A stretch of 64,000 nucleotides of DNA from the NCBI GenBank assembly GCA_000004985.1, contig GG738887.1. The stretch is one strand, 5' to 3'. Positions 16,638-35,700 of this stretch are shown in pieces. The notes under the pieces are model-generated. The model was not told the DNA's origin and did not search any database. It was given only the letters and a program-made list of their open reading frames with translations. The position numbers and the translations under genes are program-made. The first letter of the stretch is position 1; every line of letters begins with the position of its first letter. This DNA comes from Naegleria gruberi. Taxonomy: Eukaryota.

Positions 16638-19600
16638 ATGTCTGAAAAGCCTGTTGTTGGAGACTATAGCGTCGAGTATTCCAAGTCGAACCGATCAACA
16701 TGTAAATTAACCAACAAAACCATCAAGAAGGACGCGCTTCGTATTGGTAAAATTGTACAGTCGCAATCTTTTGATGGTACCTATCCGATATGGTACAATT
16801 TCGAAGGTAGGTTTTTAACTTGGTGATGATCATCAACATGTTATAATTGTTGCTTTTTTGATCGTACAATATCTTGTTTGGATCACTCTTTATTGCTTTT
16901 ATGTATGATGATATTTGTGTGAATACCTATGTTGTATTATCTTTTATCTTGTGTGGAAAATTAAATCATTTGATGATGATGAATGTGGACGAAACAATCA
17001 CCGATACAGATTGGGCAAAGGATAAGAAACTTGTTAAAGAATTCCAAACAAAATGCAAGAAGGTTCATGGTTTGTCCAAGATTCGTCTCGAAGATCAAGA
17101 ACGTATCAAGAAATTGATGGGACAATCAAGTGATGATGCTAATGGTGCTAGTGATGATAATCTCTCCGAAGAACAAAAGCAAAAGAAGAAGGAATTTGAA
17201 GAGGAAAACAAAAAGATTTGGGAAATTAAAGACAAACTTAAGAAGTTAAAGTCTTTACCATTACTGAGATCAATGCTCTCAGAGAATGATCAAATTGAAA
17301 AGGGAGGTGAAGATTTATTAATTGATAGATGTGCTCTTGGATTATTGTTTGGTAACTTGCCTGCTTGTCCAAATGATGAATGTGAAGATGGATATATGAC
17401 CTTCGCAGGTGGTGTATTTAAATGTAAGTAGTTTTTCACCATTTTCAAAATGTGGTGTTAAAATATCAAATTCTAATACATGTTATCTTCAGGTCATGGT
17501 AAATTACCTTGGGCAAAGTGTGACTACACATTATCTGTTGATGATGCATATGAAAAGGCAAAAGACTGGATTATTCCAGATGATATTGCCGAATCTAAAC
17601 AATTTGAAGATTTTGAATTTAAAAAACACAAAAAATGTAACTTTGCTTTGGATACAACTGTTCGTGCACCTGTTGCCTCTTCAAGTGAAGAAAAGAAAGA
17701 GGAAGAAGAGGAAAAGGAAGAAATTGATCCAGAAAAGGAAAAATTACCACTTGGTAATTTCAAGATTGCTTGCTCTGGTAAATTGAGTATGAAACAAAGT
17801 GAATTGCAAGAAATTATTGAAGAAAATGGTGCTACATTCTTGAAAGATGTTTCAAGTGGTTGTACTCACTTGGTTTGCTCAGAAAGTGAATATGATAAGG
17901 AAACAACCAAAGTTAAAAAAGCCAAGAAACAAGGCGTTTTAATTGTTGATGAAGATTGGATTCACATGTCTGTTGAGAAGGAAAGAAAATTGACAGAAGA
18001 TGAAACAAAGGAATATGTACATTACAATCCTCAAGATAAAAAGAGAAAAAAGGAAGAAACTGAAGAAGAAGAAGGTGAAGGACAAGCAGTTCCAAAGAAG
18101 AAGAAGGTAACCATTAAAGGAAGAGCTGCAGTTGATGAAGATTGTGAAGATGCTGATGTTTTACATGTCTATGAAAAGGGTGATGATATTTACTCTGTAC
18201 ATTTGAACTTGACAGATTTATCTACTGGTGCTAATTCTTACTATGTTGTTCAACTTTTGGAACATGATACTAGAAAGAATTATTATGTATTTAGAAAATG
18301 GGGTAGATTGAATACAAATATTGGTTCAAACAAACTCACTGAATATGGATCTGATTTATCATCTGCCAAATCAGAATTTGAAAATACTTATTATGACAAG
18401 ACTGGTAATTATTGGTATGATAGACACAATTTCCAAAAGAGACCTGGTAAATTCTTACCAATTGATGTTGACTATGGTTCAGATGAAACTGATTTGGATA
18501 AGTTACAATCAGAAATGAAGAAGGATTATAAGGGTAAATTGCATCCAGAAATTGCCAACTTGGTCAAATTAATCTTTGACGTTCAAACAATGAAGCAAAC
18601 ATTGAAAGAAATTGAAATTGATACTGAAAAGTTACCTCTTGGTAAATTGAAAAAGTCACACATTTCAAAGGGTTATGAAGTGTTAACAGAAATTCAAAAT
18701 CTCATTAAGAGTGTTCGTGAAAAGGAGAAGGAAGCAGGTGTATTTATGGAAGATGATCCACCAGCAACATCTTCAGTTGATACAACCACAACTGCCACTC
18801 CTTCATCATCAGTTGATGCCACTTCTGCTCCAGTTGATAGTTCAAGTGCTACTCCTTCTGCAACTCCTTCATCATCAGCTGATGTCGCTTCAAGTGCACC
18901 TGCTGCTGTTGTTGAAAAACCTAAGAAACCTAAAACTTCAATTCATCAACAATTCAAACAACAATTCCTCACCCTCTCCAACAAGTTCTATACCATCATT
19001 CCAACTTCAAATCCAGAAATCATTGATGATGAAGATGCTTTGAGTGCAAAGGTTAAGATGATTGAAGCTTTACAAGAAATGGAAATTGCCACCTCACTCT
19101 TGAAGAAGGATGACGAAAGTGAAGAAGATCCATTAGATGGATACTATAAGAAGTTAAAGACTCACCTCGAACCACTCGGCAAGGATAGTGACATGTTCAA
19201 GATGGTTGACACTTATTTGCAAAATACTCACGCCTCTACCCATCGTGAATTCTCACTTGAATTATTGGATGCCTTTGAAGTTGACCGTGAAGGAGAAGGT
19301 GAAAGATTTAAGAAGTATGAGGATTTACACAATCGTAGATTATTGTGGCACGGAAGTAGAGTTTCAAACTTTTGTGGTATCCTTTCTCAAGGTTTGAGAA
19401 TTGCTCCTCCAGAAGCTCCAGTTACAGGGTAAGTCAACTTCGTTCAATATTCTTTTTTAACAATTTTTCTATCCATATTTGTTGTAACTATGTAACATTT
19501 TTATTATTTCAATTTTATAGTTATATGTGTAAGTAGTTTAATTATTTCACTCATTTGTTTAAAACTAAATTGTTAACAGTTGGTAAGGGTATTTACTTTG

Positions 19601-19962
19601 CTGACATGTCTTCCAAGTCTGCCAATTATTGTCGTACTAGTCCAGATCAAAGTACTGGTATTTTACTTTTGTGTGATGTTGCTTGTGGTAATTTATATGA
19701 ACGTTTACAAGCTGACTATATTGAAAAGTTGCCGCGGGGTTATCACTGTTGTTTTGGTCATGGTAGAACTGAACCAAATAATACCATGTGTCAATATATC
19801 CTTGATGGTAAGGTTATGGTGCCACTTGGTACACCATCTGCCTCATTGTTGTACAATAGACATACCTCATTGTTGTACAATGAATTTATTGTCTATGATG
19901 TTGATCAAGTCCAGATTCGTTACTTGCTCAAAGTTAAATTCAATTATGACAGACGTTATTAA
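16638..19962 (+). CDS. poly(ADP-ribose) polymerase, PARP1-like (degenerate PARP Zn finger, PADR1 zinc ribbon, BRCT, WGR, helical regulatory and catalytic domains), ≥5 exons
   Basis: exons 16638..16806, 17010..17423, 17493..19428, 19521..19528, 19580..19962; PADR1 'ALGLLFGNLPACPNDECEDGYMTFAGGVFKC|HGKLPWAKC'; BRCT; WGR 'WGRLNTNIGSNKL'; catalytic '[50 protein letters not shown]'; ends '...KFNYDRRY*'; the first intron boundary is uncertain. Confidence 0.85.
19521..19528 (+). CDS. 8-nt microexon of the PARP gene (TTATATGT) encoding the Tyr-Met of the catalytic 'TGYMFGKG' motif
   Basis: flanked by acceptor ttttatAG and donor GTAAGTag; with the 2-nt carry-over it restores ...[21 protein letters not shown], which matches PARP1 residue for residue; no direct splice gives an in-frame product. 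Confidence 0.6.
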
Positions 19963-32726: not shown

Positions 32727-35700
32727 ATGTGTAAGTAATTAACAACCCTAACATCAGTCATTAATCACCCAATAATCAAATAATCCATCCTGTTGATTAG
32801 CAAGTGATATTAAAGGAACATTGACCAAGATTAAAGGTGGTAGTGTTCAAAATCGTTTGGCAGCCATTGGTGCTTTATTTTCTTTAGCATCAGATGATGA
32901 TATTAGAGAGGAAATTAGAAATATGGGAGGAATTGGTACTCTTGTTGGATGTTTAGAGGATAATTCTGATCCACGTATTCCTAGACAAGCCTGTGGTGCT
33001 CTCTTGTAAGTTTTTTATTACCAACTAATTTACTTACATAATAATTATTTAATATTATAATTATAATAATTATTAATTGAATGATGATTGTTTATTTATA
33101 TTATATCTATCTAGAAACATGGCAAATGATGATCAATGTAGAGAGGAAATTCGTGATTATGGTGGTGTTGAATTGATGCTCAAGCTTATTGAAAATCAAT
33201 TCAAAGATGCAACCAGTGTTGAATATGCTACAGGTGCCTTGCTAAATTTGAGCTCTGACGATGACACTAGAGAAATGGTTAGAGAAGCTGATGGTGCTCG
33301 TATTTTGGCTCGTTGCTTGTCTGATGCTCCAAGTGAAGAATCTAGAAGAAACTCTGTTGGTGCCATTGCTCAATTGTGCTTTGATCAAGAATTTACTAAA
33401 CAATTGGTTTCTGGAGATGCTTTGAAACACATTGTTGAATGTTTAAACTCAAGTGATGAAGAAACCAGAAACAGGACCTCAGGTTGTATCTGGAATTTGA
33501 GTGTTACTGCTGATGAAACTAGAGAAGCTTTGGCTCGTGAAGGTTGTTTGGAAAGTTTGGTCAATTTATTGCAAAAAAGTGAGGATGTTAATGAAGATCC
33601 TGAAACTGTTGGTAATTGTGTAATGTAAGTTTTATATAATTATATAGAAATATTCTAATTTTAACATTTTACAATAATTACTATTGCACTACATTATATT
33701 GTCAAATGTATGATGTTTAAACAGGTGTCTTTCAATTTTAAGTTCAAATGACATGGTTGCTGAAACTTTACGTGAAATGGACGGATGTTTCGAAATGATT
33801 ATTAAATTATTGAGTAATTCTGATTCTACTATTGCTCAAAATGCTGCGGCTGCCGTTTGGAATTTGGCTCACAATGATGATAACAAGAAGGTTTTGGCCA
33901 ATTTGGACACAATGGCATCTTTGATTCCACTTTTGGATTCTTTCAACTCTGCTTCCGATTGGGAAGCTTTGGAAAAAGTTTTGGGTGCTGTTTTAACTAG
34001 CAGTACCAATGACAATATGGCTGATCAATTCCGTGAAAATTCTGGATTTGGTCCACTCAAGACAATCATTGAAGGCAAGGTTGATCCAACCACTATTCAA
34101 AATGACCAACATAAGAAGTGTGTATTATATGGTATTATTGGATTTGCCGTTTTGGCTTACAATGATAAGAATAAGGATGAGATTCGTGAATGTGGAGCTA
34201 TTGCTGACTTGATTGAATTACTTTCTTTGGAGTATGATGACGATTTACTTGAAAAGGTTACTGCAGCCATTTTGAACTTGACTCACAATATTGAAAATAG
34301 AACAGCCATTCGTAAGCTTGACGGTATTTCAGTTCTTATTGAGCTTCTCTACCATCACAATGAAACCATCTCAATGAACTCTGCTGGTTGTTTGTGGAAT
34401 TTGAGTAACGACGAGGCTTGTAAAGCAGTTATTCGATCTTTGGGTGGTTTAAAGCCATTGTTAGCTTTGATTGGAGGTGGCAAGGTTGAACCACGTTCAA
34501 AGAAGGACAGAAAGATTTCAAAGGAAGCTATTGAAGCTGCCAATCGTCTTGTTGAAGGTGAAGAAGAAGAATCTGAACCAGTTCCAGAAGAAAAATTCGA
34601 TGTTATGGAATTTGTTGAAGACATCTTCAATCCAAAGAAGGACTTTGAAAAGTTGGACGATGAGGATGGATCTTCTGATAAGAAGAAACCTCAAGTCAAC
34701 AGAAATGGTGAACAAAGAACCACTACTGGTGCTGGTGTTGAATATGGTGAAGAAACTGGCATGACTCCTGCCAAGATCATTGTTGGTGCTGCTCGTATCG
34801 ATATTAAGAACAGAAGAAAGGTTGCAGAGGCCGAACGTGAAAAGAAGGAGGCAGAAGAAAGAGAAGCCAGAAGAAAGGAACGTGAAGAAAGAGAACGTGA
34901 AAGAAAACGTAAGGAAGAAGAAGAAAAGAAGAGAAAGGAAGAGGAGGAAAAGAAGAGACAAAAGGAAGAGGAGGAGAGAAAGAAGAAACTTGAAGCCGAA
35001 ATGAAAAAGAAGGCTGAAGAGGAAGCTGAAAAGGAAAGACTCCGTTTGCTTGCTGAAGCTGAACAAACAAAGAATCAACTTAAGGAAGCTTTCAATGCCA
35101 AACACAAGAGAAAGGGTGTTAAGGATGAAGACATTGATTGGGATGAAATCTATGAAGATGGATTCACTCCTTCTGCTACTAAGGATGAAGCCAAGGACAA
35201 GTTGGAAGGTCAAATTGATGAATATTCCAATCTCATTGACCCATTCAATAATAATGGTGTTTATGATCAACTCACTCCTGATGATATCAAATTCATTGAA
35301 AGTGAAATTGAAAGAGCTAAACGTTTCCTCGCTGAAAATCCAAATGCTACCAAGGAACAAATTGATGATGCCAGAAGAGAACTTGATGCCAATGTCAAAC
35401 CAATCATTGAAAGAGCTAAGGCCAGAAAGGTTCTTGGCGACATGACCACCAGCATCAGAGATCGTCTCTTGAATGACTCTGAATTGTTGAACAATTTGAC
35501 TCCTGAAGAAAGAAAGGAATTAGAACAAGCTGTTGCTGAAATGGAACAATGGTTACGTGACCATCCAGATGCTACCAAGGAAGAAATTGAAGAAAAGGAA
35601 CGTGAATTGCTTGCCAAGATTAAGCCAATTTTGGCTCGTGCTGCTACCAGAAATGATTTGGAAAATTATGCTCATGATTTGAGAAAGAAGGCAGCCAATG

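Follow-up and report, generated by a model that had tools for sequence, protein, structure and literature searches.

The question raised by this locus is where the first intron of a PARP1-type gene ends, and whether the finger domain encoded on both sides of that intron is a genuine one. The gene lies in Naegleria gruberi (assembly GCA_000004985.1) on a 64,000-nucleotide stretch of contig GG738887.1, which was analyzed as a whole and is called the window below; positions are counted from its first letter, and the gene starts at 16638. In a first-pass annotation made from the letters alone, this intron had been called ambiguous, and a long pyrimidine-rich intron, a mis-assembled or frameshifted exon and a non-canonical splice were all offered for it. 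Our analyses suggested a conventional U2-type GT-AG phase-1 intron, cut at 16806^17010, within a conserved finger that lacks its zinc ligands, a reading to which we give a probability of about 0.88. Under this reading the public gene model is right, neither an assembly error nor an exotic splice is needed, and the flagged ambiguity is gone.

Comparative and structural support for the junction

The five exons listed in Table 1, with canonical signals at their exon/intron boundaries, give a PARP1-like protein of 969 residues. An exact-sequence look-up found the product to be identical to the public protein of N. gruberi NEG-M, XP_002673922.1 (EFC41178.1, D2VPS6), annotated as 'poly(ADP-ribose) synthetase', and the junction 16806^17010 is already present in the public annotation. 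The simplest form of the earlier proposal, an intron at 16807-17009 giving ...FE/DWAKDKK... and a finger without zinc, thus coincides with the public protein, and the orthologues agree with it. As for a U2-type GT-AG intron, removal of the 203 nt restores the reading frame and leaves a product collinear with its orthologues.

The closest relatives of the protein are found in Willaertia magna (67% identity) and Naegleria fowleri (66%). Across the junction the W. magna protein reads WYSFEDWVEDKKLVKQF and that of N. fowleri WYNFDDWKEDKKLVKEF; the alignment of the finger with orthologues from related species, a check already named in the first-pass annotation, showed a residue-for-residue match over this point. 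When the proteins were mapped onto their genomic loci, an intron was located at the identical site and in the same phase, with a length of 202 nt in N. fowleri and 108 nt in W. magna. In addition, a more distant heterolobosean homologue, P0005 (Logan assembly, locus L003), has no intron at this place: its single uninterrupted open reading frame (ORF) reads WYNFEAFANSAKMVAEFKLKCK, and the number of residues from the junction to a conserved Cys equals that of N. gruberi. A Percolomonas transcriptome protein (P0189) crosses the junction as WHNFDDFMNNDKAVAEFKIGCK, with the same length. In an alignment of 15 sequences, the five heterolobosean PARP-like sequences nearest to the window protein showed no gap beside the junction and equal spacing to the conserved Cys, and no homologue carried a 20-residue insert. 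Finally, the orthologous intron of a second N. fowleri strain measures 234 nt (L005:798-1031) versus 202 nt (L001:3173-3374), the difference being one extra 32-nt tandem unit, CACAATTATTATTATTACTCTATTTCCTGTTT. Since 32 is not a multiple of three, such an insertion would be intolerable for a coding region.

The predicted structure points the same way. AlphaFold, run on spliced residues 1-99 with an alignment built without human sequences, gave a mean predicted local distance difference test (pLDDT) value of 85.9, and of 92 for the block across the junction. All 28 significant Foldseek matches in the PDB were to PARP-1 Zn1 or Zn2 or to the finger of DNA ligase III, the best being Zn1 in 3od8, with a template modelling (TM) score of 0.74 and 38-40% identity.

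Three further searches returned nothing on this junction. The contig of an N. gruberi-like strain (L004) starts 141 nt before the ORF of its protein P0003, which itself begins in intron 2, and it therefore holds the 3' end of exon 2 only and no intron 1. A protein search with the N-terminal 195 residues for transcript fragments crossing the junction gave three matches, none of them from N. gruberi, and a metagenome scan with the exon-1 peptide gave one match, an unrelated canonical CCHC finger (L006).

Exclusion of AG and choice of the acceptor

The donor GTAGGT at 16807 and the lack of any AG up to 17008-17009, both reported before, were confirmed once the AG of the donor itself (16809-16810) is set aside. 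The spacing of 199 nt between these two AGs is the second longest on the forward strand. The tract between them leaves exactly one possible acceptor, which removes the ambiguity that had been attached to the intron. From its own base composition the tract should contain 9.4 AG, none of 200,000 mononucleotide shuffles was free of AG, and the reverse dinucleotide GA occurs 15 times. To this extent the earlier statement that such a gap is improbable by chance stands; the gap is, however, not unique, as the two strands of the window hold five AG gaps of at least 194 nt, whereas a homogeneous Markov model predicts 0.47 AG-free stretches of 197 nt. Comparable tracts thus occur elsewhere, even in coding sequence, and the tract taken alone is not diagnostic.

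Introns were also considered as a group. The 12 introns of the PARP gene in N. gruberi, N. fowleri and W. magna contain 8 AG where 39 are expected, none of the 8 farther than +36 from the donor. Beyond +40, their 996 nt hold no AG at all, where 29.1 would be expected; GA is present 46 times there, and the remaining ten dinucleotides that were tallied occur at about 0.8-2.0 times expectation. One N. fowleri intron of this gene includes an AG-free run of 276 nt. In the window, 54% of GTAAGT sites are followed by at least 45 nt without AG, versus 15% of random positions. Another 19 window introns, picked heuristically by a strong donor, an upstream ORF of at least 50 codons and an early stop on read-through, have no AG beyond +40 against 8.1 expected; in these, the long ORF that follows is opened by splicing to the first AG at a distance of more than about 40 nt from the donor. 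The same rule, counted from the 5' splice site, described every intron examined, with any earlier AGs confined to within +37. Exclusion of AG is a trait of these introns generally, not a peculiarity of intron 1, and as a whole-intron regularity it rests on about 31 introns.

Among the alternatives to our reading, the one that survives best, although improbable, takes the AG-free tract of intron 1 for a compositional accident unrelated to splicing. The five long gaps on the two strands would suit it, as would a tract inside coding sequence where 8.1 AG were expected. Nevertheless, the tract of intron 1 has the highest expectation of all and keeps its GA dinucleotides, all 12 introns of the gene are without AG beyond +36, and the tract remained AG-free after the 32-nt insertion in the second N. 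fowleri strain.

The position of candidate branch motifs may indicate how the acceptor is chosen. Many short introns have CTAAC or TTAAC at +25 to +32, and several longer introns have their only TTAAC/CTAAC-like motif at +29 to +51, which leaves 54-119 nt to the acceptor. Intron 1 has candidate yTrAy motifs at +9, +52 and +164, any of which would be a putative branch point. We infer a mechanism in which scanning by the spliceosome starts at the branch site and stops at the first AG that follows; the acceptor would then be the first AG beyond about 40 nt, and other AGs downstream would have been purged, leaving a unique 3' splice site. AG dinucleotide exclusion zones upstream of 3' splice sites have been described for human exons with distant branch points, where they mark a special class (Gooding et al. 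2006, PMC1431707). As in those zones, no AG would lie between the putative branch site and the acceptor, and the first AG is used. In contrast, the zone here takes up nearly the whole intron from about +40 (197 nt in intron 1, 276 nt in N. fowleri) and is present in every intron examined. Gene prediction in Naegleria, the pathogen N. fowleri among them, could benefit from a first-AG rule, which also hints at the positioning of branch sites.

A zf-PARP finger without its zinc ligands

Pfam recognized the spliced N-terminus as zf-PARP (PF00645) with 58.1 bits (cut-off 39.3), covering positions 1-86 of the 87-position profile and residues 13-92, and a fold like that of PARP-1 Zn1 was predicted. 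The ligand positions are C22, T25, N54 and D57, that is C-x2-T ... N-x2-D in place of the canonical C-x2-C ... H-x2-C, so that three of the four ligands are replaced. Two of these losses, CKLT and WYN, had been correctly read from the PARP-type finger in exon 1; D57, completed by splicing, adds the third. Without these ligands the domain should not be termed a zinc finger in the chemical sense, though it belongs to PF00645 by homology and predicted fold. All four Cys of the downstream Zn3 are retained and align with those of human Zn3, which makes the ligand loss specific to the first finger.

The substitutions are shared widely. In an alignment of 300 domains (taken from the 150 best-scoring representatives found by an exhaustive HMMER search and from additional proteins), 218 had C-C-H-C at the ligand positions, and a separate set had C-T-N-D or close variants. 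About 20 cluster representatives among the best 150 matches were ligand-less. Within Heterolobosea, ligand-less domains came from N. gruberi, N. fowleri, W. magna, Percolomonas, Acrasis kona and one further relative; outside it they came from the euglenids Rhabdomonas and Entosiphon (C-S-x-x, in the forms C-S-K/L-F/Y), from a single-cell assembly labelled 'Picozoa' and from the choanoflagellate Didymoeca. C22 is invariant, and the second position is T or S in all ligand-less relatives. Small stand-alone proteins of about 105-132 residues from Willaertia magna and relatives (P0040, P0052, P0068) consist of one ligand-less zf-PARP (C-T-N-D) and a short tail, which indicates that the probably metal-free finger also exists outside PARP enzymes.

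Conservation was gauged by per-domain identity, the Naegleria species being too diverged for the ratio of nonsynonymous to synonymous rates (dN/dS) at about 68% protein identity. Identity of the finger to those of N. fowleri, W. magna and P0005 is 82, 77 and 57%, respectively, versus 68, 70 and 42% for the whole protein, and its conservation equals or exceeds that of the catalytic domain. Such conservation suggests a functional and not a decaying domain; 'degenerate', the word first chosen for it, does not fit the best-conserved domain of the protein. The residues aligned with human R18, R34, F44, D45 and W51 are conserved (N. gruberi R19, R35, F45, D46 and W52), with R19, R35 and W52 invariant in the 15-sequence alignment. 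In structures of human Zn1 with DNA, the counterparts of R19, R35, F45 and D46 hold the backbone of the DNA and stack against its exposed base. In addition, a further cysteine, C72 (17054-17056), recurs in the majority of the aligned ligand-less fingers from Heterolobosea (FQTKCKKV, FKIGCKKV, FKLKCKLV) and is absent from canonical ones. Jointly with the invariant C22, this residue might point to a substitute for the zinc site.

That the finger is a decaying relic, left in a drifting N-terminus of the gene, is less probable again than a compositional accident. Three of four zinc ligands are replaced, and mutation of the ligands in human PARP-1 abolishes DNA binding, which both count for a relic. 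However, the finger is the best-conserved domain in Naegleria, Willaertia and the more distant relative, at least five genera of Heterolobosea carry these substitutions as fixed changes, the residues aligned with DNA contacts do not vary and the fold is predicted confidently. The sequence comparisons and the predicted fold together suggest that the finger is probably a functional, metal-free version of the break-sensing finger of PARP-1. The spliced mRNA encodes one complete Zn1-type zf-PARP domain with C-T-N-D; in the proposed mechanism, this finger, the still zinc-binding Zn3/PADR1 and WGR would come together at a DNA break and free the catalytic domain. The proposed activation would resemble that of human PARP-1 lacking Zn2. 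Whether zinc is needed for the Zn1 fold and for the recognition of DNA ends is a question on which the heterolobosean finger offers a natural experiment.

The comparison with human PARP-1 supports homology with Zn1 (PDB 3OD8, 4DQY, 7S81), against which the N. gruberi finger scored 45 bits, versus 24 bits against Zn2. Its length and predicted fold are those of human Zn1, and the domains that follow it are in Pfam order PADR1 (Zn3), BRCT, WGR, regulatory and catalytic, with the motifs of the H-Y-E triad present (LLWHGSR, GIYFADM, LLYNEF); by these domains the protein is of the PARP1 type (Clade 1B). Unlike human PARP-1, it has C-T-N-D for C-C-H-C, the extra C72 found in most of the heterolobosean sequences aligned, and no Zn2. 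Pfam found a single zf-PARP, at residues 13-92, and no second N-terminal finger, the linker to PADR1 being about 20 residues; the heterolobosean orthologues are likewise single-fingered. An earlier phylogeny placed a Naegleria PARP in the PARP1 subclade, Clade 1B (Citarelli et al. 2010, PMC2964712), and from the PARP1-type domain set this is probably the gene studied here. Zinc-ligand loss is not mentioned in the passages on Naegleria and zinc fingers of that paper or of Perina et al. 2014 (PMC4245714). Nothing was found in the literature on a zinc-less PARP finger, on AG exclusion or on branch points in Naegleria, a result that, with incomplete coverage, speaks weakly for novelty. Both gene and model are already public; the ligand-less, strongly conserved finger is modestly novel.

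Several points weigh against our reading. First, the junction is drawn from comparative evidence and the public model, with the sole transcript evidence coming from Percolomonas, and the N. fowleri and W. magna models are themselves gene predictions. Second, the coding tract in which 8.1 AG were expected lies in a copine-like sequence (30506-30688), and the heuristic intron set took the first AG where several in-frame AGs existed. Third, an alternative metal site through C22 and C72 is possible, the zinc loss and the DNA binding being read from sequence and model. On a wider scale, it is a tentative and rather doubtful idea that heterolobosean spliceosomes anchor the branch site about 25-50 nt past the 5' splice site and scan from there, with AGs beyond about +40 purged from introns of any length, or that Discoba have a PARP-1 sensor with a metal-free finger.

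Contents of intron 1 and the rest of the gene

Table 1. Features of the PARP1-type gene and related introns (positions in the window; L001 is a locus of N. fowleri).
Feature	Position	Strand	Description
Exon 1	16638..16806	+	Residues 1-56 and first base of codon 57; N-terminal two thirds of zf-PARP (PF00645 match); peptide MSEKPVVGDYSVEYSKSNRSTCKLTNKTIKKDALRIGKIVQSQSFDGTYPIWYNFE(G/D)
First knuckle	16701..16712	+	TGT (C22) 16701-16703, ACC (T25) 16710-16712; CKLT for CxxC
N54	16797..16799	+	AAT codon, in place of the zinc-binding His of WYH
Split codon G/AT = D57	16806..17011	+	Phase-1 intron inside the codon for the fourth ligand position
Intron 1	16807..17009	+	203 nt, GT-AG, phase 1; donor GAAG/GTAGGT, acceptor gatacAG/AT
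AG-free tract	16811..17007	+	197 nt, nearly the whole of intron 1
Chance ORF	16862..17009	+	Exon-2 frame inside intron 1, SYNILFGSLFIAFMYDDICVNTYVVLSFILCGKLNHLMMMNVDETITDT; judged non-coding
Exon 2	17010..17423	+	C-terminal third of zf-PARP in the first 110 nt (to 17119), DWAKDKKLVKEFQTKCKKVHGLSKIRLEDQERIKKLM; remainder is the PADR1/Zn3 region
Exon 3	17493..19428	+	End of Zn3, BRCT, WGR, PARP regulatory domain, start of catalytic domain
Microexon	19521..19528	+	8 nt, TTATATGT; part of G-Y-M-F in the catalytic motif GYMFGKGIYFA; in the public model
Last exon	19580..19962	+	Remaining catalytic domain and stop codon
Example introns obeying the first-AG rule	17424-17492, 19429-19520, 31762-31899 (-), 33006-33114, L001:5910-6192		

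Intron 1 is longer than the other introns of the gene, and it contains an open stretch in the exon-2 frame whose peptide, LCGKLNHLMMMNVDETITDT, had been said to resemble the continuation of the PARP1 finger. This resemblance was not borne out: the peptide gave no BLASTP alignment at E<=100 with the N-terminal 201 residues of human PARP-1. HMMER instead paired the human finger segment with VHGLSKIRLEDQERIKKL of exon 2, the real continuation of the finger, and a longer human segment was aligned to KVHGLSKIRLEDQERIKKL of exon 2, not to the intronic VDETITDTDWAKD. Adding the intronic peptide to the protein lowered the zf-PARP score from 58.1 to 55.6 bits and made the domain 20 residues longer. The ORF has no conserved counterpart in the orthologous introns of N. 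fowleri and W. magna; aligned with one another, the three introns shared no sequence beyond the splice sites.

A non-AG acceptor within the tract, or an alternative isoform, would keep part of the intron in the message. The open frame is all that speaks for this possibility, which we regard as very unlikely: AG ends every intron examined in the PARP gene of the three species, the homologues, including the intronless gene and the transcript, have exactly the length that the first AG gives, and the structure across the junction is predicted with confidence. The reduced Pfam score and the lack of any homologue with the insert likewise count against the non-canonical splice proposed before.

It is less likely still that a functional RNA, such as a box C/D small nucleolar RNA, resides in the intron. 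TGATGA occurs at about 16824, 16906 and 16971, and the length of the intron relative to its neighbors could be taken as a further sign. In contrast, a comparison with Rfam gave a best match of E=3.7, with all matches far below the gathering scores; no CTGA D box was seen on reading the intron sequence; the intron showed no excess folding stability, being less stable than its shuffles (z = +1.39); and nothing is conserved with the N. fowleri or W. magna introns.

Stop codons interrupt intron 1 in the exon-1 frame (TGA at 16824 and 16827), in the exon-2 frame (TAG at 16808, TAA at 16844, TGA at 16859) and in the third frame (TAA at 16816, TGA at 16906 and 16909). The chance that the region is a mis-assembled or frameshifted exon, in which a 1-nt error hides a frame continuing the finger through 'LCGKLNH...', is negligible: although the exon-2-frame ORF from 16862 to 17009 carries Cys and His at roughly plausible spacing, with stops in every frame between 16808 and 16909 a single indel cannot open the frame and at least two would be needed, the peptide lacks similarity to PARP1, lowers the Pfam score and has no counterpart in homologues, the orthologous introns lack such an ORF, and the public model splices the region out.

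Some minor features of the gene were also recorded. The microexon is flanked by introns of 92 and 51 nt; in N. fowleri its bases are joined without a break to the exon before it, and in W. magna an exon of 48 nt occupies this place. A low-complexity insert rich in Ser, Thr, Ala and Pro (18749-18934, residues 614-675) splits the regulatory (helical) domain into two Pfam stretches, and the 96%-identical metagenome relative P0003 (L004) is without about 20 residues of it. Within the catalytic domain, an exact 17-nt direct repeat, CCTCATTGTTGTACAAT, occurs at 19841-19857 and 19865-19881, 24 nt apart, yielding SLLYNRHTSLLYNE, where N. fowleri has SKVPRHAALLYNE. The window as a whole has about 35% G+C, with CpG depleted (observed/expected 0.41) and GpC not depleted (0.81), which is compatible with cytosine methylation in N. 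gruberi.

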